IMG/VR virus record: IMGVR_UViG_3300042896_000947
Coordinates: 46,159 to 110,158 of that record
DNA: 64,000 bases
From: a virus
Taxonomy: Duplodnaviria > Heunggongvirae > Uroviricota > Caudoviricetes
Strand: one strand, 5' to 3'
Shown here: piece after piece, positions 3,121-61,876 of the stretch
Numbering within the stretch: the stretch's first letter is position 1
Layout: each line of letters starts with the position of its first letter
The notes under the pieces: model-generated
Told to the model about the DNA's origin: nothing
Databases searched by the model: none
What the model saw: the letters and a program-made list of their open reading frames with translations, nothing else
Translations under genes and position numbers: made by a program

Positions 3121-3138
3121 TCAGTCACGGGTGACTGA
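3121..3138. promoter_or_regulatory. Perfect palindrome TCAGTCAC-gg-GTGACTGA, 38 nt upstream of the major tail ATG
   Basis: Inverted repeat with 8-bp arms. Member of the genome-wide AGTCA..TGACT motif family. Confidence 0.6.
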
Positions 3139-3167
3139 TTCTATGCGCCAAGGCGCGTGGGCGCAAG

Positions 3168-3554
3168 TTAACCGCCCGGCACCACGAAGGTGACCTGCAC
3201 ATCGACCTCGAACTCCCAGTAGCCGCCCGCCGAGCGCCGGTAGGGGCGCGGCAGGTTGGCCGGCAGGCACTGGCGCACCAGCATGTCGCCGGCGGTGAAG
3301 CCGATGTGGCTGGTCAGCGCCTGCGACGCCTTGGTGGCCAGGGTGCGACCGGCGACATAGTCGGTGTGGCGCACGACGACGCGAAACTCGGTCTCGTAGT
3401 AGCCCGGCAGTTCGTGGTTGATCGGGGTGCCGCCGTAACTGCCCATCAGCAAGATGCCGATGTCGCAGGCAGCGGGCATCTCCGTCACAAAGATGGACTT
3501 GCGCTCCAGACGCGTATTGAGCGCCAGGCGGTCGGCGATGGCTTCCAGGTTCAT
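3168..3554 (-). CDS. Tail terminator / tail completion-like protein
   Basis: 128 aa, placed between the gp10-like protein and the major tail gene. Call is by synteny only. Confidence 0.4.
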   Translation of the reverse strand: MNLEAIADRLALNTRLERKSIFVTEMPAACDIGILLMGSYGGTPINHELPGYYETEFRVVVRHTDYVAGRTLATKASQALTSHIGFTAGDMLVRQCLPANLPRPYRRSAGGYWEFEVDVQVTFVVPGG

Positions 3555-4054
3555 TCGTCACCTCCGGTGTCGCGTTGGTAGTCGATGTTGATCAGGCGTG
3601 ATTTGCCCAGCGTGCGGCTCACCTCGGTGCGGGCGTTTTCCAGCATCATCTTGGTGCCCTCCTTGATGGCGCGCGAGAGAAAGCGCCCGCCCACCTTGGG
3701 GCCGGACTTGGCGCGGGTGTGAAAGTCCAGGCCGCCCGGGGCGCGCCGGCCGTGCGGGTGCAGCTGCTGCTCCATGATCCAGGCGTAGTCACCCACGGGC
3801 TTGCCGGCCGGGTGCATCGCATCCAGGTCGATGTAGACGACGAACACCTTGCGTTTGTCGGCGCCGGTGGTCGTGCCGTAGTCGATCGAGTTCTCCAGCG
3901 TGCCGGTGTCCCGGGGCGCGTACTCGCGCGCCAGGTCGCGGATCTTCACGGCGGCGCGGCGCAGGCTGCGCGCTGCGTTGCTGCTGGCTTTTTCGGCGAT
4001 GTTGTGAATGCTCGCTTCGAGGGCCGGGACGTTGAACTTGATCTTCATGCCCAT
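3551..4054 (-). CDS. HK97 gp10-like tail-component / neck protein
   Basis: 167 aa with an ..ENSIDYGTT.. region typical of the HK97 gp10 family. Overlaps the next gene by 4 nt. Confidence 0.5.
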   Translation of the reverse strand: MGMKIKFNVPALEASIHNIAEKASSNAARSLRRAAVKIRDLAREYAPRDTGTLENSIDYGTTTGADKRKVFVVYIDLDAMHPAGKPVGDYAWIMEQQLHPHGRRAPGGLDFHTRAKSGPKVGGRFLSRAIKEGTKMMLENARTEVSRTLGKSRLINIDYQRDTGGDE

Positions 4055-4057
4055 GGC

Positions 4058-4401
4058 TTACTTCCAGGCCGTGCAGCTGATTTCGAGGTGGTCGAGCACG
4101 CCGTTGGGGCGGTAGCGCTCCTGCCGGCCGATGACGCGAACCTCGTTGCCCTGCACCGTCAGGATGTCGCCCAGCGCAATGCCGCTGGTGCGCAGCGCGA
4201 GCAGCACGACATTGGCCGTGTCTTCATAGGCGTGACCGTGTGAGCCGCCCGAGTCGGTGCGCACCGTGGTATGCACCGCATTGAAGATCAGCTTGACCGG
4301 CGCGACGCGCTCGCGCTGAACCGGCCCCAGCATGGGCTGGCCGTAGGTGTCGTTGCCCAGCTGCGCGCGCCGCTCAATCCAGAGTTTCGGGTAGATCATG
4401 A
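4058..4401 (-). CDS. Head-tail adaptor / head closure-like protein
   Basis: Start moved to the internal ATG (MIYPKLW..), which overlaps the upstream stop as ATGA. Call is by synteny. Confidence 0.4.
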
Positions 4402-5199
4402 CCGGCCGATCGCGCCGCTGTAGCGCAGCCAGCGCTGCAGGTGCGCCAGGGCGCGCGGGCACACCGGGTATTCCATGGGCTTGGAGCTGCCCGTGGCGCC
4501 CTGGCGCCAGGTTTGGCTCGACTCGCCCACGGTCAGCGAGGTCATGCCAGCGTTGCCTGCCGCGCGCGGCGAGTCGATGTTGAGCACATCGTCGGCCTCG
4601 GCGACCTGGGCCAGGCGAAGCGCCGTCAGCAGGGGCGCGTAAAGCAGCAGCACATCGGCTGGTGCCAGGTTGCGCAGCAGCCGCTCGCTGCGCCGGGCGC
4701 CCAGCCAGCTGTCGCTGGTCATGCGACTCTGGTCACTGCCGAACTCCAGGGCGATGGGCAGCTGCAAGATGCGCTGGTGGGCCTCGACCAGTGCGCTTTC
4801 CCGGGCGTCGCGCTCGGCGCTGTTCCAGCCGCTGGTGAAGTCCGCAGGCTGGCCTTCGATCAAGAAGAGCGCCTGAAAGTACGACTGAAAGGTGTTGAAT
4901 CCGGCCAGCAGCACGGTGCCGGCCTTGAGCATCGCCACCTGGGTGCTGAGCCAGGCGCCCAGCGCGGTGGTGACCTCCAGCTCGATGCCGCGCAGGGCGC
5001 GCAGCGCCTGAGCCGGGAGCTGGTTGAGGGCGGCAGGAACGACGAGCGTGAGCGAGGTGCCGTCCGGCAGGTCTGCCGCCGTCCAGTCCTGCAGCACGAC
5101 TTCGTTTTCATCCAGCACGCGCCAGCGCAGCGCGGTCGGCTGCTCGCCAACCAGGTCGAAGGTCAGGGGCACATCGGTGCCGGGTTGGTAGCTTTGCAT
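4396..5199 (-). CDS. Hypothetical virion (head-tail connector region) protein
   Basis: 267 aa ORF in the head-completion region. No recognisable motif. Confidence 0.4.
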   Translation of the reverse strand: MQSYQPGTDVPLTFDLVGEQPTALRWRVLDENEVVLQDWTAADLPDGTSLTLVVPAALNQLPAQALRALRGIELEVTTALGAWLSTQVAMLKAGTVLLAGFNTFQSYFQALFLIEGQPADFTSGWNSAERDARESALVEAHQRILQLPIALEFGSDQSRMTSDSWLGARRSERLLRNLAPADVLLLYAPLLTALRLAQVAEADDVLNIDSPRAAGNAGMTSLTVGESSQTWRQGATGSSKPMEYPVCPRALAHLQRWLRYSGAIGRS

Positions 5200-5208
5200 G
5201 ACAGGGCC

Positions 5209-5665: not shown

Positions 5666-5697
5666 CAGTCACCCGTGACTTACGCCTTGTGGGCGTT

Positions 5698-6626: not shown

Positions 6627-6646
6627 CTCAGTCAGCGATGACTGAG
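6627..6646. promoter_or_regulatory. Palindrome CTCAGTCA-gcga-TGACTGAG, 23 nt upstream of the capsid ATG
   Basis: Perfect inverted repeat with 8-bp arms. Confidence 0.6.
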
Positions 6647-9122: not shown

Positions 9123-9152
9123 GGTTCTTATAGGCAGGGTTGGATGATAGTT

Positions 9153-9169
9153 TAGTCAGGACTGACTGA
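9153..9169. promoter_or_regulatory. Palindrome TAGTCAG-ga-CTGACTGA between terminase and portal
   Basis: Inverted repeat, same motif family. Confidence 0.55.
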
Positions 9170-9173: not shown

Positions 9174-10511
9174 TTATATTGAAACGCCCATGATTTCCAC
9201 CTTGCGCATCGGGTGCTCAAACTCGATGCAGTAGCCCGCCGCGTCGGCGGCGTGCTCCACGCCGGCCTTCTTGTCGACCTCGCGCGAGCCGGGCACGTAC
9301 AGCGTCTGCTCGAACGCCTCGATCAGCTTTTTGCAGCGCGGGTCGATGTAAAAGCGGATCGTGCCGTCGGCCGCGCGCAGCATGCGGTTGACCGAGTTGA
9401 CGCGGTCGGCCACGGGCGGGTGCTTGCGGCGGTACTTTTGCTTCTTGAAGCCGCGCTCCCGAAAGATGTCCAGGTCGGACTCGCCGCGCTGGTGACCCCG
9501 GTAGGCGCCGGCCGGATCTGGATAGATGACGATCTGGTCCAGGAAGCGCCAGTAGCGCCGCTCCAGCTCGTCGCACAGCTCCTGGGTGTTGGAGTTCATC
9601 AGGCAGATCTCGTCCACCGCCCACAGGTCGCCATTTTTTTGTCGCTGGAATACCACGGAGGACATCGGGTCGATGTTGAAATCCTGCCCGATCCAGATCG
9701 GCAGCGTGGGGTCGAACGCCAGCGGCTTGATGTGCACCGCCCGGTCGAACGGGTAGTAGACGCGTCCGCTCATGGTCATGAAGCTGGCGTTGAACTCCTG
9801 CTCGAAGGACTTTTCATCCATGTCGGCGCGGGCCGCCTCGATTTCCTCGACCGGGATGAAGGGCGAGGTGATGGTCGGGAACTGCCAGCTCGACCAGGCG
9901 CGGGCTTCTTCCTTCTGGCCGGCGCTCCACAGCTCGTGCAGCACGTTGAACGCCTTGGGCGTGCCGATGAACAGCGCGTGGCCGCCGGTGGAGGCCAGCG
10001 TCGGGCGCAGCACCTTCTTCCAGGCGTCCGGGCTGATGTCCTGCACCTCGTCCATGACCAGGTAGTGAATGCCGACGCCGCGCAGCGTGTCGGGGTTGTC
10101 GGCGCCCTTGAGTTCGATGCGGCTGCCGTTGACCAGCGTGATCGTCAGGATGGTCTCGTTGTACTTGCGGACCCAGCTGCGCGGAATCGCCTCGACCAGG
10201 TCGGGCCACATGATCTGCTTGGCCATGCGGTAGGACGGCGCGACGTACCAGATCAGGCGCCGGGGTTTGCGGGCGAACTTGATCAGGCAGATTTTGGCCA
10301 GCTGCGTCTTGCCCCAGCGCCGGCCCGCGACCACGACCTTGAAGCGGTGGCGGCTCTGGTAGACCTCCATCTGCTTGGGGTGCAGGAACAGCGTGTTGGC
10401 CGGCGGCCGGAAGTCCTCACGGATCGCGTCGCTTGCGGTCGCCAGTGCGCTCGCCAGCGCGAGCGGGGTGAGGGCGGTATCAATGCCCGCTTTGGCGGGC
10501 TTGGCACTCAC
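9174..10511 (-). CDS. Terminase large subunit
   Basis: Walker A VVAGRRWGKT and Walker B HYLVMDEVQD in the N-terminal ATPase domain. C-terminal nuclease domain. 445 aa, GTG start abutting the TerS stop. Confidence 0.9.
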   Translation of the reverse strand: MSAKPAKAGIDTALTPLALASALATASDAIREDFRPPANTLFLHPKQMEVYQSRHRFKVVVAGRRWGKTQLAKICLIKFARKPRRLIWYVAPSYRMAKQIMWPDLVEAIPRSWVRKYNETILTITLVNGSRIELKGADNPDTLRGVGIHYLVMDEVQDISPDAWKKVLRPTLASTGGHALFIGTPKAFNVLHELWSAGQKEEARAWSSWQFPTITSPFIPVEEIEAARADMDEKSFEQEFNASFMTMSGRVYYPFDRAVHIKPLAFDPTLPIWIGQDFNIDPMSSVVFQRQKNGDLWAVDEICLMNSNTQELCDELERRYWRFLDQIVIYPDPAGAYRGHQRGESDLDIFRERGFKKQKYRRKHPPVADRVNSVNRMLRAADGTIRFYIDPRCKKLIEAFEQTLYVPGSREVDKKAGVEHAADAAGYCIEFEHPMRKVEIMGVSI

Positions 10512-11150
10512 TTACGGCCCTTCTGCGAAGTCATCGGGCATCATGTCTGCCCCCGCGTCTGCGTCAGCGTCAAGCCCCATCTCGTCATCGAAGGAGCGGG
10601 ACTGCAGCTGCAGCATTTCGCCGGTGGTGAGTTCGCGCACGGTGAGTTCCGGCAGGTGGTCGTAGCCTTCTTCCTTGGCGTGCTTCTCCACGTCGAGCAC
10701 GGCGAACAATTCCTTGCGCGCGTTGCCGATCACGTCGCCGGCGAGCTTGAGCGCCATCATCACGTCCTTGAGCGTGCCGATGTCCACCTTGGCCTGACGG
10801 GCGCGCAAAATCTCCGCCCAGGCGATCTTGGCCAGGTTGCTCGACATCAGGAAGTGCTCGTTGCGCGTGGCGGCGATCTTGCGCATCGTCTCTTCGGTGT
10901 CCGACAGCGTGCGGGCCTCGACGGTCGCCATGACCTTCTTGACCGCCTCTTCCGCGCCGGAGCCCTTGACGATGCCCATGCGGGTGAACAGCCGGGACAG
11001 GGTCTCGGGCTGCTTCTTGTAGCGCTTGCCCAAATCTTCGAGCGTGACGGTGCCGGTGCGCCAGAGGGCGGCGGCCTCGGCCTTTTGCGCGACGGTCATC
11101 TGGCGAAACGTGACGGGCTTTTTCGGCTTCTTCTTTTCTGCTTCACTCAT
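10512..11150 (-). CDS. Terminase small subunit (HTH DNA-binding)
   Basis: 212 aa with a Lys-rich N-terminus and an acidic C-terminus, immediately upstream of TerL. Confidence 0.6.
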   Translation of the reverse strand: MSEAEKKKPKKPVTFRQMTVAQKAEAAALWRTGTVTLEDLGKRYKKQPETLSRLFTRMGIVKGSGAEEAVKKVMATVEARTLSDTEETMRKIAATRNEHFLMSSNLAKIAWAEILRARQAKVDIGTLKDVMMALKLAGDVIGNARKELFAVLDVEKHAKEEGYDHLPELTVRELTTGEMLQLQSRSFDDEMGLDADADAGADMMPDDFAEGP

Positions 11151-11419: not shown

Positions 11420-11812
11420 TCAGTCCACGGCGAACTCCCGGAGGGAAGCGATTTCGGCGTCCAAATCGAGCACCTCGGGCCTCCCGGAGCGAAGGCTTGG
11501 GCTTTCCTTTTCGGCCGGTCCTTCAGGCTTTTCCGGCGCCATTCGGCGTGGGTCCAGCACGGCTTTGCCGGCTTCCAGCAGCCGGTAGCAGACCCGGTTG
11601 CGGCCCCGTCGGGACTCCAGCGGCGCCTTCTCGATGAACTTCTTGCCGACCATCGCCCGGATCGTGAACTGCGCGCTTTCCTTGCTCGGCGTCCAGGACA
11701 GCGTCTCCAGCAGCTGGTCGAAGTCCGCCAGGCGCTCGCCCAGCGCTTCCAGGCGACCGAGCGTGGTCAGAATCTCAAACTGGTAGGGCGTGACCCCTTT
11801 CAGGCCCCTCAT
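11420..11812 (-). CDS. Winged-helix transcriptional regulator (PadR/MarR-like)
   Basis: Start at MRGLKGVTPYQFEILTTLGRL. Contains ..RVCYRLLEAGKAVL.., a wing motif. Overlaps the upstream gene as ATGA. Confidence 0.45.
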   Translation of the reverse strand: MRGLKGVTPYQFEILTTLGRLEALGERLADFDQLLETLSWTPSKESAQFTIRAMVGKKFIEKAPLESRRGRNRVCYRLLEAGKAVLDPRRMAPEKPEGPAEKESPSLRSGRPEVLDLDAEIASLREFAVD

Positions 11813-13396: not shown

Positions 13397-13642
13397 TCAG
13401 GCGCCCCAGGTAATTGCTTTGACCGCCCACATCTGCGATGTCTGGGCTTCGGTGATGGCGATGGACGCCAGGCGGGCAACTTCAGCGCGACCACTGAGGG
13501 TGGCGCTCACACGCAGGTCGTTCAGCTGGTCAATGGCAGCGGCATAGCTGCGCTTGCACTGGTCGACGGCCGGATTGCCGCCGGGATTGAAGGACACGCC
13601 GACGGCTTTTTCGCCGAAGGTTGGTTCGCGGGCAATGGTCAT
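13397..13642 (-). CDS. Hypothetical protein
   Basis: 81 aa ORF. Confidence 0.4.
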   Translation of the reverse strand: MTIAREPTFGEKAVGVSFNPGGNPAVDQCKRSYAAAIDQLNDLRVSATLSGRAEVARLASIAITEAQTSQMWAVKAITWGA

Positions 13643-14359: not shown

Positions 14360-14651
14360 TTGGAGGTCTCCCAGCGCTTGAGCGCCTCGATAGCAGTCAG
14401 TTCAGGAACCAGGGTCGCGCCGTAGCGGCCCGTGGTGGCGTAGGCAAACAACCGGATGGCGGCAGCCCGTACTAGCCAGCGCGGCAGCCAGAAGGCGATG
14501 CCCATCACGGCGCGGGCGCGCCACTCACCGAGCTTCCAGCGCGACTCCACGATCAGCAGGCGCAGCCAGAGCGGCTGCAGGCAGGCGGTGACCTCAATGC
14601 AGATGACGGCCAGCACCAGCAGGGTCGTGACAAGGATTTCGTTATCAGTCA
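14356..14651 (-). CDS. Small membrane protein
   Basis: Start MTDNEILVTTLLVLAVICIEV. Two or three hydrophobic helices. RBS GGAG. Confidence 0.45.
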
Positions 14652-14659
14652 TGAGTGAA

Positions 14660-15316
14660 TTACTCCACCGAGGCGGCAAAAGCCACCAGTGCTTCGGCAT
14701 CCTTGAGCCCTGTGACGGCTTCCGCCTTGGACATCATGCTGGCGATGGCAATCTGCCCGGCCGAGGAGATGTCCTTGAAGCCAAACGCCTTGGACAGCGG
14801 TACGCGCACGCCGGCATCCTTGGCGCGCTCGGTGCGTTCGTCCATGTCGCGGCGCTGCTCTTCGAGCACGGCCCCCATGTCGGTGACGAAGGCGTCCGGG
14901 TTCATGATGCCCAGGTCGGCCACGGCGAACTCCAGCTCCTTGACATCGAAGATGCCCGAGAGATCGGCGTCCAAGTCGCCCAGCTCCAGGCGCAGCAGCT
15001 CGGGGTCGATGTCCGAGATCGCCACGCGGTTGTCGGCCAGGCGCGCCGCGCGCACCTCGTCGGCCGACAGGTCGCGGCGGCACCACACCGGCACGGTCTT
15101 CATGCCCAGCTCGATGGCGGCCAGGCGCCGGCCGTGGCCCTTGATGATCAGGCCGTTCTTGTCCACCACGATGGGCTGGTCAAAGCCGAAGCGGGAGATC
15201 GCCTGCACGATGCGGGCGACCTGCTCCTTGTCGTGCTTTTTGACGTTCAGGTCATAGGGAATCAGGTGCTCGATCGGCCAGCGTTCGAGTTCGATGGAGG
15301 CTTCTTTTTTGCTCAC
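14660..15316 (-). CDS. ParB-like nuclease domain protein (ParB/Srx N-terminal fold)
   Basis: ..DQPIVVDKNGLIIKGHGRRLAAIELG.. ParB N-terminal motif. 218 aa. Confidence 0.7.
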   Translation of the reverse strand: MSKKEASIELERWPIEHLIPYDLNVKKHDKEQVARIVQAISRFGFDQPIVVDKNGLIIKGHGRRLAAIELGMKTVPVWCRRDLSADEVRAARLADNRVAISDIDPELLRLELGDLDADLSGIFDVKELEFAVADLGIMNPDAFVTDMGAVLEEQRRDMDERTERAKDAGVRVPLSKAFGFKDISSAGQIAIASMMSKAEAVTGLKDAEALVAFAASVE

Positions 15317-15850: not shown

Positions 15851-16020
15851 GCGAAGGTCAGCTCCCGGCCGCGACGGGCCTGTATTTCAAGTTCGTCGGA
15901 ACCCACTTCGTTGGGTTCATACTGGTCGGCCTCGTCGCAAAAGGCGCAGGTGCTGCTGTCGGCATAAGCGCAGCTGTTGCATTCGTCAAACCCGTTATCG
16001 TTGCGGATACGGATGAACAT
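15847..16020 (-). CDS. Small Cys-rich (CxxC..CxxC) zinc-ribbon-like protein (57 aa)
   Basis: Found by manual translation: MFIRIRNDNGFDECNSCAYADSSTCAFCDEADQYEP... TGATG overlap with the upstream ParB-like gene. Confidence 0.3.
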   Translation of the reverse strand: MFIRIRNDNGFDECNSCAYADSSTCAFCDEADQYEPNEVGSDELEIQARRGRELTFA

Positions 16021-16733
16021 CACATGACTTCTCTGGCTGCGTTGGCCATTTCGACCAGCGCCATGCCGGCGGCCACCATCGAGTCCTGCTCGGCGGCAAA
16101 GCCCTTGGACTTGATCACGTACTGGATGAACTTCTCCAGCCGGTCGCGGTCCTCGACGGGCACCTTGAAGCGCATCAACTCATGCGTGACGGTCGCACGC
16201 GGCGCGTCTGCATCGGGCAACGGGCCCACGTCCGGGTCGGTGTCGTCGAAACCGAGGTCGTCAAGGTTCACCGCAGAGCTGGCGAAGATGCCGGCCAGGT
16301 CGGACTCGTCAAAGGGCAGCAGTTCGAGCATCTGCGCGTCCATCTCGCCCAGGATCGAAGCGAGCTTGAGCGCGTCGTCCTCGCCGTAGCGGCCGTTGTC
16401 GGCCAGGCCGAGCGCCATGGCGCGCTGGTCGGAAACACCCTGCAGAATGACCACCGGGATGGACTCGATGCCCATCTCGACAGCCTTACGGGCGCGATGC
16501 TCCCCACCTATAATTTGAAGCACACCCCCTTCGATTTCCCTGCACACGATGGGCTTGATGAAGCCGAACTCACGGATGCTCGCTTCGAGCCGAGCCTCCA
16601 TGTCGGGGCCGACGCGGTTGCTGTTCCAGGGGTTAGGCTGGAGCGCTCCGGGCGAGCAGTAGTCAATTTGGATTTTGGTCACTTGGCTAGGTATAAGGGA
16701 TAATGGATAAGTCAGCACTGACTGTATAAGCAT
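16020..16733 (-). CDS. ParB-like nuclease domain protein, paralog of 14660-15316
   Basis: ..LQPNPWNSNRV.. and ..IVCREIEGGVLQIIGGEHRARKAVEMG.. ParB N-terminal motifs. The C-terminal region is similar to the other paralog (LELGDLDADLSGIF vs LELLPFDESDLAGIF). Start uncertain (16733 or 16754). Confidence 0.65.
   Translation of the reverse strand: MLIQSVLTYPLSLIPSQVTKIQIDYCSPGALQPNPWNSNRVGPDMEARLEASIREFGFIKPIVCREIEGGVLQIIGGEHRARKAVEMGIESIPVVILQGVSDQRAMALGLADNGRYGEDDALKLASILGEMDAQMLELLPFDESDLAGIFASSAVNLDDLGFDDTDPDVGPLPDADAPRATVTHELMRFKVPVEDRDRLEKFIQYVIKSKGFAAEQDSMVAAGMALVEMANAAREVM
16710..16723. promoter_or_regulatory. Palindrome AGTCAG-ca-CTGACT in the divergent promoter region between ParB-like (minus) and helicase (plus) genes
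   Basis: Perfect 6-bp arms. Confidence 0.55.
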
Positions 16734-18499: not shown

Positions 18500-18523
18500 T
18501 TTAGTCAGTCGATACTGACTAAA
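18500..18523. promoter_or_regulatory. Perfect 10-bp-arm palindrome TTTAGTCAGT-cgat-ACTGACTAAA followed by the CAACAA..AAGG leader of the next gene
   Basis: Seen directly. Lies 14 nt upstream of the ATG at 18538. Confidence 0.6.
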
Positions 18524-21268: not shown

Positions 21269-21292
21269 GGCTAAGTCAGTAATGACTTAGCC
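21269..21292. promoter_or_regulatory. Palindrome GGCTAAGTCA-gtaa-TGACTTAGCC
   Basis: Perfect 10-bp arms, just downstream of the 21302..21910 gene. Confidence 0.55.
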
Positions 21293-21301: not shown

Positions 21302-21910
21302 TTACGCTTTGTCTGCCCCTTGCATGAGGGTTTCAAGCTGCCCAGCGCTCATGCTGTCAATCACTTTGAAAAACTTGATAATCGCGGGATGCTCATGGTT
21401 TAAGAAAACTTCACGGTCGTGCGTCGGGTGTGCATAGGTCATTCCCAAGTGTTGCATGAACCCGTTTTTACCAATCGAATTGCTGACCTTTGTGGGCACG
21501 GTCGTAACCCCGTGCGCCCCTTTGATTTTCGCGTTAACTGCGCCCAAGCCCACGCCCCGAGTATTCACAGCGTCGCTACGCTTGTTAGCAGCGAGTGCGG
21601 TAAGCGCGCCCGTGGTAAGGTTGAATTCGCCCGCTTCGCGCATGCTGACCAACAAACGCGCATGCGTTTTATCGAACATGGTAGAAACGCCCGCTGTGAT
21701 CGCGTTAACAAACTGGGTTGTGCGTTTGAGTTGCTTTTGGTTGAAGGTCATAACCAGCGCCCACTCGATCCCGAGTTTTTCACCTTCAACCATCGTCGTC
21801 GGGGAAAAGTAGTGATTTGAGCGTTCTGACAAGCACGCAAGCAAATCGGTAGAATTTGCAGCTTTGTGCGCTTTGATCATTGAAACCAGAACATTGTAAG
21901 AGTTTGACAT
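21302..21910 (-). CDS. Hypothetical protein in a low-GC island (possible regulatory or antirepressor-like moron)
   Basis: 202 aa ORF with markedly lower GC than its surroundings. An operator-like palindrome triplet lies about 200 bp upstream. Confidence 0.5.
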   Translation of the reverse strand: MSNSYNVLVSMIKAHKAANSTDLLACLSERSNHYFSPTTMVEGEKLGIEWALVMTFNQKQLKRTTQFVNAITAGVSTMFDKTHARLLVSMREAGEFNLTTGALTALAANKRSDAVNTRGVGLGAVNAKIKGAHGVTTVPTKVSNSIGKNGFMQHLGMTYAHPTHDREVFLNHEHPAIIKFFKVIDSMSAGQLETLMQGADKA

Positions 21911-22126
21911 TTGAGACCTTTTTTTAAACCCTGCTTTATTGCAGTGATGTCATTGTATGCGCTTTATGCACCTTTTTACTAGGTGTAAACCCTAGTAATT
22001 AGTTTTATAAGTAGTCGGGGCTTTTCTAACAAAGTGGGCGCATGAGTGCGGGCGCGAATAGCATAAATTTAGGGGATTGTCAAATTTATTTTAGACCCCT
22101 AACTCTTATGTCTTATGTCTTATATA

Positions 22127-22185
22127 AGAGTAAAAGCAGTCTTATATAAGACCATGGTCAGGTCTTATATAAGAGTGACAACACG
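22127..22185. promoter_or_regulatory. Three 14-bp palindromic operator-like sites GTCTTATATAAGAC/G spaced 22-23 bp apart
   Basis: Copies at 22127-22140, 22149-22162 (perfect palindrome) and 22172-22185. Confidence 0.55.
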
Positions 22186-22354
22186 ATTTAAGCGATTATT
22201 TTCGTTATGCACCCGATAGGGTTAGGGGTGCATAAAAAATCGCTCTGAGACCGTTCTGATGCGTTTTCACCATTTTGGTGCATAAATATAGAATCGGGTT
22301 TTTATGCTTTTCAGCTATATCAGGGTTTACCCTAACAGCCCGACCAAAATTCGC

Positions 22355-22720: not shown

Positions 22721-22741
22721 AAAAAGGGGTCCGAAGACCCC
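22721..22741 (-). terminator. Intrinsic terminator GGGGUCUUCGGACCCC + U6 ending the cassette array
   Basis: Minus-strand hairpin plus T-run immediately after the stop at 22769. Confidence 0.6.
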
Positions 22742-22768
22742 GTGCTGAAAAGGGCTTGCGCCCTCTTT

Positions 22769-23213: not shown

Positions 23214-23303
<90 letters not shown>

Positions 23304-23727: not shown

Positions 23728-23823
23728 TTGGAGAACCTGTGGTGTTGTACCGGGAAACCGCTTCCCGATACATTGATTATGGGGGCACATGTCAGGACTG
23801 ACTGATTCAGACCAGGCTGTGAA

Positions 23824-28274: not shown

Positions 28275-28379
28275 GATGCTGCGATTATCGGCGCGTCAGA
28301 GGGTTAGCGTCGTCAGAACCCAGTCAGGAATGACAGAATTCTCATTGGATTCACAGCACGGCAGCATGATGGGTGGCTA

Positions 28380-30553: not shown

Positions 30554-30631
30554 GGTGCTTTCGCTTTCTTCGGGGTTAAAAATCTATTGTGACCACGGGG
30601 TCTCGGCCCGTGGGTCAGTGGTGACTGAAGC

Positions 30632-31027: not shown

Positions 31028-31086
31028 AAAAATCTCCTTCGGTGGTGATAACAAAAACAGGATTGTGACAGATAGTCAGGCGTGAC

Positions 31087-31431
31087 TTACTCGCGGACCA
31101 TGTACTTGACGCGCCAGGCGGCGTATTCCGGGTCGTCATAGCCGACGCGGGGCAGAAAGTCGTCCACGCCCGCGCCCTTGACCGGCGTGAGGCCCTGGTA
31201 GTAGAAGCCGGCGTAGCAGTTGTGCTCATGCAGGACAGCCTCGACCATGTTGTTGGCGCCGTGCGCCAGGCCGATCCAGTAGTCTTCGGGCTTTTCGCGC
31301 ACATGGGCGGCCTGGTTTTCAAGCGCAGCGGTGCGCTTGACGCGCAGGACTTCGTCGACGTGGCGCATGACGCCTTGCTGACGATCCAGCAGGGCGATCA
31401 GCTTGGCGGGGGTTTTGCACTTGCGGGACAT
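31087..31431 (-). CDS. Cassette gene, hypothetical protein (114 aa)
   Basis: Start MSRKCKTPAKL. Leader GGGACAATTGAATTTGTCCCGAACGCAACAACACGAAAGGTTCTCCAA-ATG. Confidence 0.5.
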   Translation of the reverse strand: MSRKCKTPAKLIALLDRQQGVMRHVDEVLRVKRTAALENQAAHVREKPEDYWIGLAHGANNMVEAVLHEHNCYAGFYYQGLTPVKGAGVDDFLPRVGYDDPEYAAWRVKYMVRE

Positions 31432-32990: not shown

Positions 32991-33059
32991 GGTGGTTCCC
33001 CTGTTGTGAGAATTCAATTGTCAGTGCTGACTGTCGGCAGCAACAGTCAGCGGTGGGCG

Positions 33060-33440: not shown

Positions 33441-33513
33441 AAGTGCTTTCAGGTTGTGGTTTCGATAAATCAATTGTCTGCGCGTGGTTCAGGCAGTGGT
33501 GACTGACACCCGG

Positions 33514-37012: not shown

Positions 37013-37317
37013 TAATGGACTCCCGAGGGTGGAAAAACATGCAGCGGTGCGCTGCCCTAAAAATATAATTATGCCCACCATGTTCAGGCAGCAGTGACTG
37101 ATCTTAACATGGGCCGAAAGCCCTTCCCGACGCAGACCGAAGCGCCCGCGCGCCTTGTTCGCTGCCCGCTACAGCGCCCCTGCCGACGCTCGGAGCATGT
37201 GGGGCAAGGGGTAGGTATGCCCTGCGCCCCGCGCTGGTGCCGAGCCCGGCGTGCTGCCTGCCCCGTGGGCGTAAAAAAGCAGGCCGAAGCCTGCTTGTGT
37301 GGTGGAGAGGCCCAGCG

Positions 37318-39037: not shown

Positions 39038-39107
39038 GAAGAGCCTCACTTTGGTAGTGGTGGAACATAAAACATCGGTCAAATTATTTTGAACCGATAA
39101 AAGTATT

Positions 39108-39123
39108 GTCAGAGCTGACTGAC
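39108..39123. promoter_or_regulatory. Palindrome GTCAG-ag-CTGAC(TGAC) upstream of 37802..39037, plus IR ATCGGT-N13-ACCGAT at 39074-39098
   Basis: Seen directly. Confidence 0.5.
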
Positions 39124-40878: not shown

Positions 40879-41041
40879 GGCTGGCCTCCTCGCAGAGCTG
40901 GACAAAGACCGCCAGCGCGAACTTGTCGAGCGTGAACAGGCTTTCTTCGGGGCCGGCCCAGCGCCATTGGGAGCGTGGGAATTTCAGTTTCTTCATGGGT
41001 GCCTCTTGTAGTCAGCGGTGACTTAATTGTCACGCCCGCTT

Positions 41042-42505: not shown

Positions 42506-42535
42506 GCATCTAGTCAGAATTGACTGACTAGATGC
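42506..42535. promoter_or_regulatory. Perfect 12-bp-arm palindrome GCATCTAGTCAG-aattga-CTGACTAGATGC
   Basis: Seen directly. Lies upstream of the gene starting at 42472. Confidence 0.6.
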
Positions 42536-44547: not shown

Positions 44548-44656
44548 TTGCGTACCTCTTAAAAAAATGGGAGGCTCTGTGGCCTCCCTTGGTTTAGCTT
44601 GTTCGCTATTCTTGGGTTTATTATAGTCAGTCATTGCTGACAAACTCAACTATATT

Positions 44657-46096: not shown

Positions 46097-46158
46097 GATT
46101 CTCCAGGAAGAGTTTTAAATAGTCAGTTGTGACTGATTTTATTATAGTCAGACAAGTG

Positions 46159-47583: not shown

Positions 47584-47677
47584 GACTTCCTGATGTAAGG
47601 GCGGGCACATTGCCCGCCCGATGGTTAAATTGTAGGGGAGCGGTTCAGGATTGAACCATTCACCCGTGACTTACTTG

Positions 47678-49243: not shown

Positions 49244-50080
49244 TTAAAGGACAATCAACAGCGGGTCTTTGCGCTGATGCAGGCCGACCCCGACGAGGTT
49301 GGCCACATAAATGGCGTCGAAGTGAAGGTCCAGCGCCATGCAGCCGGCCGAGAAGATGCCGTGCGAGACGTACAGGAAAATCTTGCCCGTAGTGAGCTTG
49401 CGCAGCTCCTTGGCCAGCTCGATGAAGGTGCGGCCGCCATCGCAAATGTCGTCCAGGATCAAGAAGTCGCGGTCGCCGACCGGCTCCGAATACACCACGG
49501 TGCCGGTGATCTTGCCGGTCAGCGGGTCGCGCGTCTTGTCCGCGCGCACCACGTCGGCAAAGCCGTACTCTTTGGCAAAGGCCAGCACCTTCTTGTTCGC
49601 CCCAGCGTCGGGCGACACCAGAATGGCGCCGCGCTGGGCCTCGGCGACCGTTCGGGCGGCCGTGAGCAGGCTGATGTGCGTCAGGTTGTCGATCAAGGCC
49701 GCGCCCACGTCGGAGTGAATGTCAGTGCAGGTCACGCGGCTGTAGCCCTGGCTGTTGATCAGGTCGGCCACCACCTTGACGGAGAGCGACTCGCCCGGGT
49801 TGCACACGCGATCTTGGCGCGCATACGGCAGGTAGTGCATGGTGAGCGACAACTCGACCGGCTCACTGGTGCGCCCGCCGTAGTGCCGGCGCACGGCATC
49901 GGTGAGCAGCAGCAGGTCGATCAGGTCGCCGTTGTCCTTGAAGTCCATGGTGATGTTAGCCACGATGGCCTTGCCGCCCGGGAAGATTTCAGGCGGGTTG
50001 ACCAGCCGCACCAGCGACTCGCCGCCGGGGAAGCCGGTGATGGCGACTTTGACTTCGCCGTTGTGAACGAACAGTTTCAT
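49244..50080 (-). CDS. prs: Ribose-phosphate pyrophosphokinase (PRPP synthetase)
   Basis: Start MKLFVHNGEV (RBS AAGGAG). PRPP-binding loop ..ILDDICDGGRT... Confidence 0.75.
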   Translation of the reverse strand: MKLFVHNGEVKVAITGFPGGESLVRLVNPPEIFPGGKAIVANITMDFKDNGDLIDLLLLTDAVRRHYGGRTSEPVELSLTMHYLPYARQDRVCNPGESLSVKVVADLINSQGYSRVTCTDIHSDVGAALIDNLTHISLLTAARTVAEAQRGAILVSPDAGANKKVLAFAKEYGFADVVRADKTRDPLTGKITGTVVYSEPVGDRDFLILDDICDGGRTFIELAKELRKLTTGKIFLYVSHGIFSAGCMALDLHFDAIYVANLVGVGLHQRKDPLLIVL

Positions 50081-51471: not shown

Positions 51472-51485
51472 AGTCACTTGTGACT
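51472..51485. promoter_or_regulatory. Palindrome AGTCA-cttg-TGACT directly followed (on the coding strand) by TATAATAAATC
   Basis: Seen directly. Same unit at 52283-52309, 54690-54714, 46121-46150, 44618-44641, 60299-60324 and 61419-61443. Confidence 0.6.
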
Positions 51486-52120: not shown

Positions 52121-52324
52121 GGGTTGCTTTCCTGAGACTAAAAATTTGTTTTTCACTGACGAGTCAGCGGCTGGGTGGCTGGGTTCGTGCCCCGGATGCA
52201 AGTCGCTTGCGACGGCTGATATCCGGGGTGCGTTCCACAGATTGATGGGCGGGAGCGTGAACTCCGCCCATTCAATTTTTGTAGTCATTTCTGACTGATT
52301 TTATTATAGGGAGCGCAGTTCGGC

Positions 52325-54658: not shown

Positions 54659-54741
54659 TATTTCCTAGTGGTTAAAAGTAAGGGAGCGCGATTTTATTAT
54701 AGTCAGGGGTGACTGACCATATAAGCCCGAAAGCTAGGCGC

Positions 54742-54987: not shown

Positions 54988-55565
54988 GCCGCGCGCATCG
55001 CGGTCATCATCGCCACGGCTTGACTGAACTGCGCCGTCAGCAGCCCGGCGGCCACCGCTGCGCAGGCGTCGGCCATGTGTTCGTTCTCTAGCAGCAGCGA
55101 CACCTCGCCCTTGACCTTGCGGGTCTTCCAGCCGGCGTCGGGCCAGGACGCCACCGCCCACTGGATGATGGCGTCCTTGCTGGCGTTCTTGTTCCCGGTG
55201 CTGGCGATCTTGACCTCCATGGGCGAGACCTCGATCAGCGGCAGCGTCAGGCTGGCCAGCACCCCGCAGCAGATGCCGTTGGAGAAGGCACCCCGGGCCG
55301 ACTGACAGCCACCCGGGACTTCGGCCACGGCGATGTTGGGCTTGTGGATCAGCACCACGCGCCTGATTTCCTCGACGATGATGCGGGCGCGGCTCAGGTC
55401 GTCGGAGCTTTTGCGCACCACCTTGCCTTCCTTGCCCTTGTCGGTCTTGGCCAGCTCGACATGCGTGATGCGCAGCTTGCCGGTGACGAGGTCGTAGTCG
55501 GCGATGGCAAGGCCGGTGTTCCGAAGCGCTGGGTCAATCCCGATGATTCGGATGGTCTGGTTCAT
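54984..55565 (-). CDS. ruvC: RuvC-like Holliday junction resolvase
   Basis: N-terminus ..IRIIGIDPALRNTGLAIAD.. is the RuvC catalytic motif. 193 aa. Confidence 0.75.
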   Translation of the reverse strand: MNQTIRIIGIDPALRNTGLAIADYDLVTGKLRITHVELAKTDKGKEGKVVRKSSDDLSRARIIVEEIRRVVLIHKPNIAVAEVPGGCQSARGAFSNGICCGVLASLTLPLIEVSPMEVKIASTGNKNASKDAIIQWAVASWPDAGWKTRKVKGEVSLLLENEHMADACAAVAAGLLTAQFSQAVAMMTAMRAA

Positions 55566-55960
55566 GTTTGTTCCTTGGGGATGGGGAGGTTGAGAAGGCG
55601 CATGACTTCAAGAAGCTCGCCGGTCGATACGGTGGCGGGTGTCGAGTAGCTGGGAATGTTACGCAGGCCGGCATTCAGGTCTTGCCACAGGCGGAGGCGG
55701 TACTTCTCACGCAGGTGTTCGGCGCGATTCATGTGGCAGGTGCCTGGGCTGTTCCAGCCTGCGCCGTCTGCAACCAGGCTTTTAAGGTCAATGCGCATCT
55801 GGCGGGCGCCGCCGTCGTGCCTCTTGCTTAGGGTGGCCCATGTGCGACCGACCGTTGCAATAGTGACGACACTGCCTTCGCCGTTACGAAGGCCGGAAGA
55901 CCGGGGTTCAAACCAAAGCTCCTGGCCGACGGCAAGGTTGTGCGGGTTGTGGCTGCTCAT
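55562..55960 (-). CDS. Hypothetical protein (132 aa)
   Basis: ORF, coupled. Confidence 0.45.
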   Translation of the reverse strand: MSSHNPHNLAVGQELWFEPRSSGLRNGEGSVVTIATVGRTWATLSKRHDGGARQMRIDLKSLVADGAGWNSPGTCHMNRAEHLREKYRLRLWQDLNAGLRNIPSYSTPATVSTGELLEVMRLLNLPIPKEQT

Positions 55961-58471: not shown

Positions 58472-58920
58472 GTTGCCTCCATGATGCGGGAGTTGATGAT
58501 CTTGGTGCGGCCCTCGGCGGCAAGGCGGTCAGCGCGCTCATTGCCAGTCACCCCTGAGTGACCCTTGACCCATAGAATACGGGCTTTTGATTGGAGCGAC
58601 AGCGCGTAGCCTTGCTTGACGAGGTCCAGGTTCTTGACCGGCTGACCGTCGCCCTTGACCCACCCGCGCTTTTTCCAGCCGGCGGCCCAGGCCGTCAGCG
58701 TCTTCACGCACAGCTGGCTGTCGCTGAAAATGGTGCAGGGCTGGCCATCGGCCAGGCGCATCGCTTCGATCAGCGCTTGCATCTCCATGCGGTTGTTGGT
58801 GGTCTCCATGGCGCCACCGCACTCGGTCCAGACTTCGCGCCCGTTTTGGTAGGCGACCACGCCCCAGCCACCGGCGCCTGGATTGGGAATGCACCCGCCA
58901 TCGGCATAAATGTCGAGCAT
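58468..58920 (-). CDS. rnhA: Ribonuclease H
   Basis: Start MLDIYADGGCIPNPGAGGWG. ..TNNRMEMQA.., ..SDSQ.., ..HSGVTGNERADRLA... Confidence 0.8.
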   Translation of the reverse strand: MLDIYADGGCIPNPGAGGWGVVAYQNGREVWTECGGAMETTNNRMEMQALIEAMRLADGQPCTIFSDSQLCVKTLTAWAAGWKKRGWVKGDGQPVKNLDLVKQGYALSLQSKARILWVKGHSGVTGNERADRLAAEGRTKIINSRIMEAT

Positions 58921-60256: not shown

Positions 60257-60327
60257 AAATTGTTCCTCTTAAAAATGCCCGCATGGTGCGGGTCTGGTTT
60301 CATTATAGATAGTCAATTCTGACTGAC

Positions 60328-60738
60328 TCACCCTGGCTGCGTATAAAAACGGTGACTGCCGATCTGCTTGACCTCGACCATCGCCAGGCGCCAGCGTGGG
60401 CGAACGTAGGTGGCGTGGTAGAAGGTTGCGCCCCGGGTGAAGTCCGGCATGCGCCCGGCCAGCGAGGTCTGCGCGATGCGCTGGGCCATCCACCAGGCGT
60501 GCTGGTCCTTGGGGGTCAGCGCCGGCGACAGCTCCCAGCCGCCCTTGACGCGGGTCACGCCCCGGTTGGCCCAGCTGAACTGCTTGGGCTTAAAGGTGAC
60601 CTGGCAGACCTGGCGCTTGTCCTGCTTGGCGCGGTTGAGCGTGACCATCGCCACGGCGTACTGGCCCATGACGGGTTCGCCGCGCGCTTCGTGAAAAATA
60701 TTTAGACTTAAACAAAGCAGTGCCGTGCTGACGATCAT
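60328..60738 (-). CDS. Cell wall hydrolase, SleB-like (Hydrolase_2 family)
   Basis: Start MIVSTALLCL (signal-like). ..NIFHEARGEP.. and ..AMVTLNR.. SleB motifs. N-terminal extension in the ORF track rejected. Confidence 0.6.
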   Translation of the reverse strand: MIVSTALLCLSLNIFHEARGEPVMGQYAVAMVTLNRAKQDKRQVCQVTFKPKQFSWANRGVTRVKGGWELSPALTPKDQHAWWMAQRIAQTSLAGRMPDFTRGATFYHATYVRPRWRLAMVEVKQIGSHRFYTQPG

Positions 60739-60844
60739 GACCGTTCGTCCACCAGCAGGCACAAAAAGCCCACCACAAAGGCCCACGCTGGCGCACTTAG
60801 GGCAATGCAGGCGAAGAGGCCAAACAGCGCCGTCGTATTGATCT

Positions 60845-61135
60845 TCATGCGTCCAGCTCCAGGGTTTCCTTGGTGGTGGTGTTGGTGGCAAGCGGCGGCG
60901 GCTCGATCTTGACCAGCCAGTCGGCGGCAAAATCTGCCAGGCCGCCGGGCACCAGCGAGCGGTCATCCCGGGCGCGCTCGGCGAACTCGGCCTCGCAGCG
61001 CCAGAGGATGCCCAGCTGCGGGCACTCGTAGACACGATGCCTGACCTGCACGATCAGTCCGATGTTCGGGCTGTCCTTGCCCTTCAGGCCGCTGATGACA
61101 CGGCACATGTCTCCGGCTTCAATGGGTTTGTTCAC
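60845..61135 (-). CDS. Hypothetical protein (96 aa)
   Basis: ORF, coupled. Confidence 0.4.
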   Translation of the reverse strand: MNKPIEAGDMCRVISGLKGKDSPNIGLIVQVRHRVYECPQLGILWRCEAEFAERARDDRSLVPGGLADFAADWLVKIEPPPLATNTTTKETLELDA

Positions 61136-61395
61136 GGCTCGTCTCCCGTCACGGTGATGGCCTTGCCGAAGTCATCGTGCCAGGTGCCGTCGGGCTGCTG
61201 CGTGACGCGCTCGACGCTGAAGTCCTCATCGTCGCCCTCGGGCTCTTCGCCTGCCTGGATCGCCGCCTCGTAGCGGGAGGCATTCATGTCGTCGAGTTCG
61301 GCCTGCGCCTCTTGCTGCGTGTCGTAGAAGTCGTCCGGACTGACGGTCGGCCCCTGGAACACGGTGTCGCAAACCAGTGCAAATTTCGTTTTCAT
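61132..61395 (-). CDS. Small acidic hypothetical protein (87 aa)
   Basis: Preceded by palindrome AGTCA-tgga-TGACT (61430-61443) + TATAAT + RBS. Confidence 0.45.
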   Translation of the reverse strand: MKTKFALVCDTVFQGPTVSPDDFYDTQQEAQAELDDMNASRYEAAIQAGEEPEGDDEDFSVERVTQQPDGTWHDDFGKAITVTGDEP

Positions 61396-61417
61396 AGTTT
61401 CCCTTTCGATGCCCTGA

Positions 61418-61876
61418 TTATAAAGATGCAGTCATGGATGACTTACGGCGACCGCCCGCGACCCGCATCTGGGCCAGGGTGTTGGCCACCCGGTCCTCTT
61501 CGGGCGGCAGCGTCTCGACCCACAGGCCCTTGGGCACAGCCACATAGGACTTGGTCCGGTCCACCAGTGCGGCGCTGCATGCTTCGAGCGGCGCGGTGTA
61601 GCTCGAACCGTCCGGGAAGCGACAGCCGACGAAGACCACGCCGTAAGAGCGCAGGCTGCTCAGGGCGCTGCGCGTGACGTGGATCGAGTCATCGCTGGGC
61701 GACAGGCGCATGACCTCGGCCGAGCCCCAGTAGATGCCGCAGGCCGGCGGTGACCCGGGCATGGTCTTGGCGACCTCGATGCGGCCCAGCACCTTGTTGC
61801 CGACCTTGACGGTGCGGGTGGTGAACAGGCCGCACTTGCTCAGTTTTGGCTCGCTGATGCGCTGCTCGTAGTTCAT
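61418..61876 (-). CDS. Hypothetical protein (152 aa)
   Basis: ORF. Confidence 0.45.
   Translation of the reverse strand: MNYEQRISEPKLSKCGLFTTRTVKVGNKVLGRIEVAKTMPGSPPACGIYWGSAEVMRLSPSDDSIHVTRSALSSLRSYGVVFVGCRFPDGSSYTAPLEACSAALVDRTKSYVAVPKGLWVETLPPEEDRVANTLAQMRVAGGRRKSSMTASL

Follow-up and report, generated by a model that had tools for sequence, protein, structure and literature searches.

The 64,000-nucleotide stretch analysed here (positions 46,159 to 110,158 of the IMG/VR virus record IMGVR_UViG_3300042896_000947; hereafter, the window) belongs to a 109-kb phage-plasmid related to SSU5 and Nickievirus, and its noncoding DNA is studded with copies of a short palindrome, AGTCA-N4-TGACT, which probably serves as the operator of the element's own repressor. 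In the window, the structural genes of a siphovirus (tape measure, major tail, capsid, scaffold, portal, and terminase) occur together with genes of nucleotide metabolism and recombination (nrdJ, thyX, dUTPase, NAPRTase, SbcCD, RuvC, RNase H, and RecA). Its synteny is shared with the SSU5 and Acinetobacter phage-plasmids, as well as with Pseudomonas phage nickie and Stenotrophomonas phage BUCTxx99; a direct comparison with known phages gave nothing close, 58 per cent being the best capsid identity. According to the gene map, which was taken from external gene calls of the same genome, nearly all genes of the window lie on the minus strand, and the block at 16.7–20.6 kb lies on the plus strand.

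The same genome is represented by a 109,425-bp JGI contig and by Logan contigs that are 100 per cent identical to the window, and the neighbouring DNA is tied to the window genome by 100 per cent identity over 12 kb. Beyond the right end of the window are genes for a TrfA replication initiator, ParA, a sigma70-family sigma factor, and a cI/cro-like divergent gene pair. The presence of TrfA, ParA, and the divergent regulator pair therefore identifies the element as a phage-plasmid. The sigma factor gene (10001–10657 of locus L180, approximately 7 kb past the right end) is located between the genes for a MoxR-like ATPase and DNA polymerase III alpha. Motif-bearing relatives are resident plasmids of Acinetobacter baumannii isolates.

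Exact copies of AGTCA-N4-TGACT occur 16 times in the window against an expectation of 0.13, and 28 copies are found if up to one mismatch is allowed (expected, 1.0 [1.02]). When every 5+5 palindrome with a spacer of 0–10 nt was counted without bias, AGTCA/TGACT came out far ahead (16 copies; any other palindrome, at most seven), and its enrichment was seen at a spacer of 4 nt only. An earlier note on this DNA, made from the sequence alone, had listed 23 coordinates for the palindrome and proposed that its enrichment be checked against shuffled controls: the motif is present at all 23 (16 exact copies, the others with one mismatch), and none of 100 shuffles reached 16 exact copies. Five one-mismatch copies, at 14647, 28322, 37086, 47658, and 58546, lie beyond that list, and further copies occur in the 17 kb adjoining the window. 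The spacer of 2–6 nt given in the note has to be corrected, as the distance between the AGTCA and TGACT cores is constantly 4 nt and the longer 'arms' are flanking extensions. Variants with two mismatches are at background (24, compared with 11–23 in shuffles) and show no intergenic preference; the motif family is therefore sharply bounded.

When the copies are aligned in gene direction, the full site is an 18-bp sequence, T(C/A)AGTCA-N4-TGACT(G/T)A, with a T at position -2 in 26 of the 28 copies, a free centre of 4 nt, and information at background beyond positions -2 and +16. The centres of the half-sites are 9 bp apart, or about one helical turn. In the plus-strand block, both copies obey the flank rule on the plus strand only. 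Twenty-four of the 28 copies are located in noncoding DNA, which makes up 13.3 per cent of the window (binomial P ~1e-17). The earlier note's statement that almost every intergenic region holds a copy was too generous: among 56 intergenic regions that are 30 nt or longer, 24 do so, and a low-GC (guanine plus cytosine) block at 20.6–29.2 kb is nearly free of copies.

Copies within one genome tend to have a common central 4 nt, an unexplained pattern that could reflect a genome-specific preference for certain centres, site-to-site copying, or pairing. The copy behind the capsid gene (5667–5680) and the copy on the major-tail promoter (3123–3136), 2.5 kb away, have centres that are reverse complements of each other. 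Such reverse-complement centres occur in the window and the viral loci L001, L002, L003, L005, L006, and L011 (CGGG/CCCG in the window, TGGG/CCCA in the L001 group, and GTGG/CCAC in L002), and not in L009 or L020.

The 28 copies are given below. Where orthologous positions are listed, they refer to the A. baumannii plasmid NZ_CP115646.1, the syntenic plasmid pA52-1, or viral loci (L numbers); close relatives are those with a capsid identity of at least 70 per cent.

3123..3136, minus strand: exact; major-tail promoter copy covering approximately -5 to +9, with TTGCGC-N17-TAGAAT ending 2 nt ahead of it and the ATG (3083) 39 nt further on; orthologues in relatives (NZ_CP115646.1 at 88667)
5667..5680, minus strand: exact; promoter-less post-capsid copy, preceded by the capsid stop codon (5698) and followed by the capsid intrinsic terminator (hairpin of -19.6 kcal/mol and a T-run); position kept in 12 of 12 close relatives (NZ_CP115646.1 at 85556), with a different palindrome in a sister clade
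6630..6643, minus strand: exact; capsid promoter copy, beginning 2 nt past the -10 box of TTGCAA-N17-TATACT (6673–6645) and 26 nt before the ATG (6603)
9154..9167, minus strand: exact; portal promoter copy, filling the 17-nt spacer of TTGTCA-N17-TATCAT (9172–9144); the sister clade has the same layout with its own palindrome, as does pA52-1 at 69304
14647..14660, minus strand: one mismatch (ATTCA...TGACT); at a tight gene junction, where the ParB_N gene ends (TAA) and the next one begins (ATG) within the copy; weak and possibly a chance match
16710..16723, no strand assigned: exact; in the 72-nt divergent region between a ParB-like gene (minus) and a helicase gene (plus); TTGCCA-N17-TACAGT of the minus strand extends over its first 3 nt, and the plus strand has GATAAT at -11 to -6; orthologues at L009:238, L046:10002, NZ_CP115646.1 75204, and pA52-1 76635
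18507..18520, plus strand: one mismatch (AGTCG...TGACT); 17 nt before the plus-strand gene at 18538, with TTGACC-N17-CATATT upstream; follows the T(-2)C(-1) rule on the plus strand only
21274..21287, minus strand: exact; centre of a perfect palindrome with 11-bp arms, GGGCTAAGTCA-TTAC-TGACTTAGCCC, 3' of the gene at 21302–21910; no promoter recognised
23790..23803, minus strand: one mismatch (AGTCA...TGACA); upstream of the gene at 23353–23727, with CATAAT 9 nt downstream
28322..28335, minus strand: one mismatch (TGTCA...TGACT); in a long noncoding stretch, with GAGAAT directly upstream
30613..30626, minus strand: one mismatch; 5 nt past a stop codon and followed by a GC-rich hairpin; no promoter recognised
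31074..31087, minus strand: exact; its T(-2)A(-1)A(+1) is the TAA stop of the upstream gene, and the next start is 46 nt away
33019..33032, minus strand: one mismatch (AGTCA...TGACA); 28 nt before the next start
33491..33504, minus strand: one mismatch (...TGCCT); 9 nt past a stop codon
36172..36185, minus strand: exact; 6 nt past a stop codon, the next start being 18 nt away
37086..37099, minus strand: one mismatch (...TGCCT); TAAGAT ends 2 nt upstream, which is the register of the capsid promoter
39107..39120, minus strand: one mismatch (...TGACA); in a 330-nt intergenic region, 69 nt before a 411-aa gene
41010..41023, minus strand: exact; 13 nt before the next start
42512..42525, minus strand: exact; its flanks form a second, longer palindrome, ATCTAGTCA-N8-TGACTAGAT
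44629..44642, minus strand: one mismatch (TGTCA...TGACT); TATAGT at -12 to -7, a TATAAT beginning 4 nt after it (TTGAGT-N18-TATAAT), then a hairpin and T-run
46121..46134, minus strand: exact; directly behind TGAC-TATAAT-AAAATC, so that the transcript would start at about the beginning of the palindrome
47658..47671, minus strand: one mismatch; 6 nt past the NAPRTase stop codon and followed by a GC-rich hairpin; no promoter recognised
51472..51485, minus strand: exact; directly behind TGAC-TATAAT-AAATC
52283..52296, minus strand: exact; directly behind TATAAT-AAAATC
54701..54714, minus strand: exact; nrdJ copy, whose last T is the first base of TATAAT-AAAATC (TGAC-TATAAT), placing the palindrome in the spacer; TTATAT upstream is a second -10-like box
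58546..58559, minus strand: one mismatch (ACTCA...); within coding sequence and possibly a chance match
60311..60324, minus strand: exact; 3 nt past a stop codon, with TATAAT beginning 4 nt after it
61430..61443, minus strand: exact; in the last codons of a 152-aa open reading frame (ORF), with TATAAT beginning 8 nt after it

Approximately 16 of the copies overlap predicted sigma70-type promoters, whose start sites are likewise predictions. The mean promoter score near copies is 7.7 bits, compared with 2.0 at random positions, and an independent consensus scanner called exactly the portal and capsid promoters. The promoter-palindrome pairs at the portal, capsid, and tail genes are kept in 12 relatives. 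The remaining copies, about 12, have no recognisable promoter and typically lie 3–30 nt past a stop codon, several of them just before a hairpin or terminator. The earlier note had held that the late genes lack a -10 box; the capsid, major-tail, and portal genes in fact have canonical sigma70-type promoters, each with a 17-nt spacer.

Measured from the palindrome's first base, -10 boxes lie between 12 nt upstream and 22 nt downstream, and they fall into at least five registers. Specifically, the box ends 2 nt before the palindrome at the capsid and major-tail promoters, and 5–6 nt before it at 46121, 51472, 52283, and L045:5928, where TATAAT-AAA(A)TC runs directly into AGTCA. It overlaps the palindrome's first bases at the ParB promoter (TTGCCA-N17-TACAGT) and at the promoter of the regulator gene itself (TACAA[T]GTCA), begins with the palindrome's last T at nrdJ (54701) and before a gp32-like gene (TGAC-TATAAT), and starts 4–8 nt after the palindrome at the portal promoter and at 44629, 60311, and 61430. 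Fusion to TATAAT(AAAATC), described in the note as usual, is thus found for a minority of copies and does not hold as a rule, the TATAAT being upstream at 46121, 51472, and 52283 and downstream at 54701, 44629, 60311, and 61430. Similarly, a palindrome on the spacer or -35 side of the box describes some copies, such as those of nrdJ and the portal promoter, but not a fixed geometry.

There is, accordingly, no constant distance from the palindrome to the -10 box or start site of the kind expected of a core promoter element. Because the register over core promoter DNA is variable, the palindrome appears to act in repression by occlusion, rather than as an activator site, a sigma-factor element, or a MerR site. 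The over-long spacer (19–20 bp) of MerR-type promoters was not found either, since the portal palindrome, which is located in the spacer, occupies one of the optimal 17 nt. What endures of the note's proposal is its core, in outline: the palindrome as the operator of a dimeric DNA-binding regulator, overlapping promoters of the sigma70 type. The changing registers and normal spacers speak against the activator and MerR-like variants of that proposal.

Positive control deserves separate consideration. The palindrome might be the site of a phage activator, or part of the promoter of a phage sigma factor, and take the place of the -35 box at early and middle promoters. Several of these promoters are a perfect TATAAT lacking a -35 box; TATAAT is adjoined by the palindrome on its upstream side at 54701, 44629, 60311, 61430, and L045:6535, and by most copies in pA52-1; and a gene for a sigma70-family factor is present in the genome, as in pA52-1 and RHEph10. 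At 46121, 51472, 52283, 3123, 6630, and in the regulatory switch region described below, however, the palindrome follows the -10 box and start site or covers them, a position from which activators and sigma factors do not act. Moreover, the late promoters, with good -35 and -10 boxes and 17-nt spacers, need no activator (MerR-type sites need 19–20 nt), and the post-capsid copy has no promoter at all. We regard positive control as unlikely.

Two arrangements close to these promoters were noted in addition. The sequence TATAAG-N4-ATG directly precedes the portal start codon (9123–9140) in the window and most relatives; it could be a second promoter giving a leaderless portal messenger RNA (mRNA). 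At 44560–44628 and 60257–60310, a perfect TATAAT after the palindrome is followed within about 15–45 nt, and before the next start codon, by a GC hairpin and T-run; these units could produce a short transcript or act as a 5' attenuator.

Does the palindrome act as DNA or as RNA? Its arms are invariant, its centre is free, and its spacing is fixed. In the variant survey, one-mismatch variants mostly break a base pair, and no class of compensated stems was seen. The predicted RNA hairpin is weak, averaging -2.5 kcal/mol for the 14-mer and -3.6 kcal/mol for the 18-mer, compared with -19.6 kcal/mol for the adjacent capsid terminator. Invariant arms, a free centre, missing compensation, and a weak hairpin therefore place the function at the DNA level, and the palindrome is very probably a DNA operator bound by a protein. 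Scans of the window found no Rfam family match and no transfer RNA.

Under the opposing view, the motif would be transcribed into a hairpin that gives mRNA 5' ends stability, serves as a mark for processing, or influences termination. Such a role would suit the co-orientation of the motif with transcription (through the T at -2), the transcripts of the TATAAT-AAAATC promoters that run into AGTCA, which would begin with the hairpin, the conserved copy directly ahead of the capsid terminator, and the ProQ-C-like protein encoded at 55562–55960. It would also suit the terminator hairpin after the major tail gene (2196–2223), whose stem is AGCCA-GCAA-TGGCT in the window and AGTCA-GCAA-TGACT in relatives (L001:11242 and L011:4195). 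The hairpin's marginal stability, the absence of an Rfam match, and an invariant stem around a free loop, with variants that break pairs, nevertheless speak against it. In addition, copies upstream of or across a -10 box would be untranscribed, or half transcribed, from the local promoter, and the pA52-1 palindrome lies upstream of the -10 box. The RNA-level role that the earlier note had suggested for the late genes is unnecessary given their canonical promoters, and an RNA element in general seems quite improbable. The 2196–2223 hairpin is the sole compensated variant in noncoding DNA; here the hairpin has been kept and the motif lost.

The candidate binding protein is encoded outside the window. 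Scans of its approximately 50 proteins with Pfam and PHROGs found no classical repressor in the window, and one of the candidates that the earlier note had put forward, a winged-helix ORF at 11420–11812, has no helix-turn-helix (HTH) match in Pfam or PDB. About 11 kb past the right end, next to the TrfA/ParA module, lies the gene for P0031, a 174-aa protein with a predicted cI/XRE-like HTH. It is divergent from a 56-aa gene that heads an early operon (CobT-MoxR-sigma-DnaE). The 224-nt region between the two genes (L180 6049–6272) contains two palindromes, 129 bp apart, each placed on one of two near-identical divergent promoters (cctcccTACAAT). This switch layout recurs in L181, L183, L184, and NZ_CP115646.1, whose regulators are 43–64 per cent identical; what is kept is TATAA[T]GTCA-N4-TGACT at the regulator promoter and a second copy in the opposite direction.

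In the AlphaFold model of P0031, a five-helix core is predicted with confidence (predicted local distance difference test scores of 80–90), and the C-terminal half is poorly modelled. Foldseek matched the core to P22 c2, TP901-1 CI, lambda cI, SinR, HigA, and Stl; for P22 c2, the template-modelling score is 0.77–0.78 and the root-mean-square deviation 1.7–1.8 Å, at an E-value of at least 0.02. No S24 (LexA-like) domain was detected in P0031, the C-terminal half of which is helical. A tblastn search showed P0031 to be homologous to CYRAN_45, the putative repressor of Escherichia phage Cyrano, and through intermediate members P0031 is linked to HTH/XRE regulators of approximately 1,000 plasmid records. 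CYRAN_45 is expressed in a lysogen of Cyrano, a ciprofloxacin-inducible phage-plasmid of the SSU5 type (PMC9928086).

Comparison among related elements ties the palindrome to this regulator. All 12 close relatives carry the motif at the same density and in the same orthologous places (portal, capsid, post-capsid, and tail). In relatives, the symmetry extends to both flanks: of 53 copies, 42 have T at -2 and 43 have A at +16. Among viral loci that encode a regulator with the recognition helix [PA]N[VI][IL][AS]M[IMF]K, 26 of 26 carry AGTCA-N4-TGACT, at GC contents of 38–66 per cent; their motif density is 5.1 copies per 10 kb, compared with 0.44 in unrelated loci. The A. baumannii plasmid NZ_CP115646.1, whose P0031 homologue (WP_001107553.1) has the helix RPNVLSMIKSG, contains 33 AGTCA-type copies.

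Other members of the group have other palindromes. In L012 and L016, ACTAACT-N4-AGTTAGT is found with the same geometry and in the same places. The plasmid pA52-1, which is syntenic with NZ_CP115646.1 and whose regulator (WP_128385900.1) has the helix Q-NMVSFIVRG, carries approximately 27 copies of AGTAAGCGCTTACT (AGTAA-N4-TTACT) in orthologous places. The regulators of these two plasmids are 30 per cent identical, compared with 73 per cent for the capsid and 56 and 65 per cent for the two ParB-like proteins; direct BLAST of P0031 against the pA52-1 regulator found nothing, and the two are linked via intermediate family members only. Cyrano (L185/L186) has dispersed, promoter-linked palindromes of its own: 12 copies of ...ATAAGAA-AACAA-N-TTGTT located 20–35 nt before start codons, and seven copies of TAAGTA-N2-TACTTA. 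The lytic relatives nickie and BUCTxx99 have neither the regulator nor a dispersed palindrome. As a side observation, the sequence GGTAAG-TG-CTTACC beside the putative repressor of Cyrano resembles the pA52-1 motif. Probing the viral collection with TATAATAAAATCAGTCA yielded AT-rich chance matches only.

Since two elements of one host species have different palindromes, the binder should be the element's own regulator and not a host factor. A host transcription factor, or a mobile promoter-plus-stem-loop cassette like the PeSL of T4-type phages, might otherwise be considered: the copies are short, numerous, intergenic, and frequently paired with TATAAT, and a shared central 4 nt within a genome could mean site-to-site copying. 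Yet the same motif occurs in elements of 38 to 69 per cent GC, and, as regards a cassette, the copies keep orthologous positions between diverged flanks, with no extended repeat unit and with information at background outside the 18-bp site. Either origin is very unlikely.

The same comparison bears on the two ParB-like proteins, likewise named in the earlier note as possible binders. One of them (16020–16682 or 14660–15316) might load at the palindromes and silence or partition the plasmid. Both have a ParB/Srx N-terminal domain related to Spo0J/Noc/ParB, and a palindrome is located in the promoter region of the gene at 16020–16682. Within the ParB family, KorB of RK2 and Noc each have numerous palindromic sites in scattered locations, and KorB/KorA repress a large plasmid globally through approximately 12 or more copies of a 13–14 bp palindrome at varying distances from promoters. 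However, nickie and BUCTxx99 keep both ParB-like genes in synteny and have no dispersed palindrome, and no HTH or other DNA-binding region was detected beyond the N-terminal domain. Between plasmids with different palindromes, the ParB-like proteins are almost as similar as the background set by the capsid would lead one to expect, in contrast to the regulator, a pairwise comparison of two Acinetobacter plasmids that is not decisive alone. Unlike the sites of KorB and Noc, moreover, those of the window overlap core promoters and do not act from a distance. We rejected the ParB-like proteins as binders because they do not co-occur with the motif, and regard a role of this kind as very unlikely. 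N4-like hairpin promoters and nick, methylation, or recombination sites were also considered and set aside, as the copies track promoters and the regulator.

Taken together, the sequence comparisons and the structural model suggest that the palindromes are probably dispersed operators of a cI-like master repressor encoded by the element itself, with P0031 acting as the repressor in the plasmid state. In the plasmid-prophage, a cI-type dimer would sit on each 18-bp dyad, of which there may be some 35–45 copies over the 109-kb genome. A dyad over the spacer, the -10 box, or the start site would block initiation by the host RNA polymerase, and each transcription unit would be silenced separately, including the capsid, portal, and tail genes with their strong consensus promoters. 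The two copies of the switch region, on divergent promoters, would provide autoregulation and a switch. Copies lacking a promoter might act as roadblocks or as auxiliary looping sites; the post-capsid copy is a candidate for either function.

Several observations weigh against this repressor model. The role of the promoter-less copies, of which that at 5667 is the clearest, is a guess. Many early and middle promoters have no -35 box (for example, TGAC-TATAAT), and such promoters, together with the element's own sigma factor, leave room for an activating role at some sites. Because the 26 loci were recovered by probing with the recognition helix, they cover that helix type only, and the result tests whether the helix predicts the motif and not the converse. 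In RHEph10, AGTCA-type copies go with a helix that differs somewhat (QSNMVTMIKKG), and the mapping between helix and motif is therefore not one-to-one. A Pfam scan of P0031 found no HTH match by sequence, its homologues being annotated as HTH/XRE, and the Foldseek E-values are weak (0.02 or above), as the domain is small and the model of the C-terminal half poor. The binder, or a partner in binding, could also be the 56-aa protein or the product of some other linked gene. Finally, GTDB bacterial genomes returned only distant matches to the element, and its lysogeny therefore rests on the plasmid genes.

The regulatory principle itself is known from P1 C1 and L5 gp71, and the present phage-plasmid group would be a new instance of it. 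The C1 repressor of P1 acts at 22 operators dispersed over the genome (PMC8546580). Like P1, the element is probably a plasmid-prophage, for which a single repressor is envisaged with operators scattered over about 100 kb, each at its own promoter or operon, and with operators at the repressor control region. In P1, the operators are 17-mers that lack symmetry (ATTGCTCTAATAAATTT), and C1 does not belong to the cI/XRE-type dimers, whereas the palindrome is a 5-N4-5 dyad with a candidate binder of predicted cI/XRE fold; the backbone is also unrelated (an SSU5/Nickievirus-like siphovirus), and putative operators are found here even on structural-gene promoters. The gp71 repressor of mycobacteriophage L5 and other cluster A phages binds operators and 'stoperators' (PMC9283540). 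L5 resembles the window in having more than 20 copies of a 13–14 bp site, in promoters and in promoter-less short intergenic spaces, and in the co-evolution of repressor and site into immunity groups. It differs in that its sites are asymmetric, work in a single orientation relative to transcription, and are bound by a monomer with two domains; the sites of the window are perfect dyads without this asymmetry, which may work in a stoperator-like manner at the promoter-less copies, where a roadblock is conjectural.

The lambdoid phages lambda, P22, and 434 provide a further comparison. Their likeness lies in the predicted fold of P0031, which is close to P22 c2, in dyad operators of 14–18 bp, and in a regulator gene that diverges from a small cro-like one, the promoters of both carrying operators. 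Lambdoids, in contrast, have six operators in two clusters and control late genes by antitermination, whereas the element would have roughly 35–45 single operators, one per unit. Neither tandem operators of the OR1–3 type nor a RecA-cleavable S24 domain was found, the switch region having two single operators. In Streptomyces phage phiC31, conserved inverted repeats (CIRs) bound by the repressor are distributed over many intergenic regions, including the repressor promoter and, in some cases, sites near terminators. That phage belongs to another group and has another type of repressor, and its early promoters are not of the sigma70 consensus.

We further propose, tentatively, that one cI-like dimer could silence a 110-kb plasmid-prophage via approximately 40 operators, including pre-terminator roadblocks or looping anchors, and that concerted replacement of helix and operator (AGTCA to AGTAA, TAACT, or AACAA) might have produced immunity groups across the SSU5/pMT1/pKpn/Acinetobacter supergroup. 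A literature search found no description of these palindromes, or of lysis-lysogeny control, in SSU5-type or AB-type phage-plasmids. These SSU5-type and Acinetobacter 'AB' elements are among the commonest large plasmid-prophages of Klebsiella, Escherichia coli, Salmonella, Yersinia pestis (pMT1), and A. baumannii. If the proposal is correct, the regulon and a map of transcription units could be read from sequence, and immunity or incompatibility types could be predicted from the motif and the recognition helix, indicating which clinically common plasmids coexist or exclude each other. Cultured A. baumannii plasmids with the same motif would then offer an experimental system for the uncultured element, and a palindromic, cI-type case would join the short list of systems in which one repressor serves many operators (P1, L5).

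Some other features of the window were noted. The JGI contig ends at approximately 28193 of the window, and the Logan assembly breaks at about 23–28.7 kb, in a repeat-rich block; the window spans the contig ends and is a circular or terminally redundant assembly. The region at 21911–22768 is AT-rich, iteron-rich, and origin-like, with three to four copies of gattttgtattcggc..ggtccttgactgagagtcggc, four of attgcttagacaatcatcg, and three of ctcttatataagac. It is followed at 23096–28000 by approximately nine small-gene cassettes (66–124 aa, no Pfam match), in a block of lower GC (53–58 per cent) that has almost no palindromes. Each cassette contains a terminator, hexamer tandem repeats, (CAGGCT)n, with about 17 copies at 23130–23250, and a conserved promoter/5' untranslated region, ...tagggtcaGATAATTGA...CAACAACAcAAGGTCTC, before the ATG. 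The early-looking cassettes (23–28 kb) and the origin-like region may escape control by the palindrome.

Among the remaining genes, the ORF at 55562–55960 encodes a phage ProQ-C-terminal-like domain of the RNA-chaperone type (PF24203, E = 1.4e-13). A protein of the Acb2/Tad1-hairpin family (anti-CBASS/Thoeris sponge type) is encoded at 13397–13642, and the genes at 47678–49228 and 49244–50080 encode NAPRTase and a PRPP-synthetase-like protein (nicotinamide adenine dinucleotide salvage). The presence of the Acb2/Tad1-type protein and these salvage genes suggests a counter-defence set.

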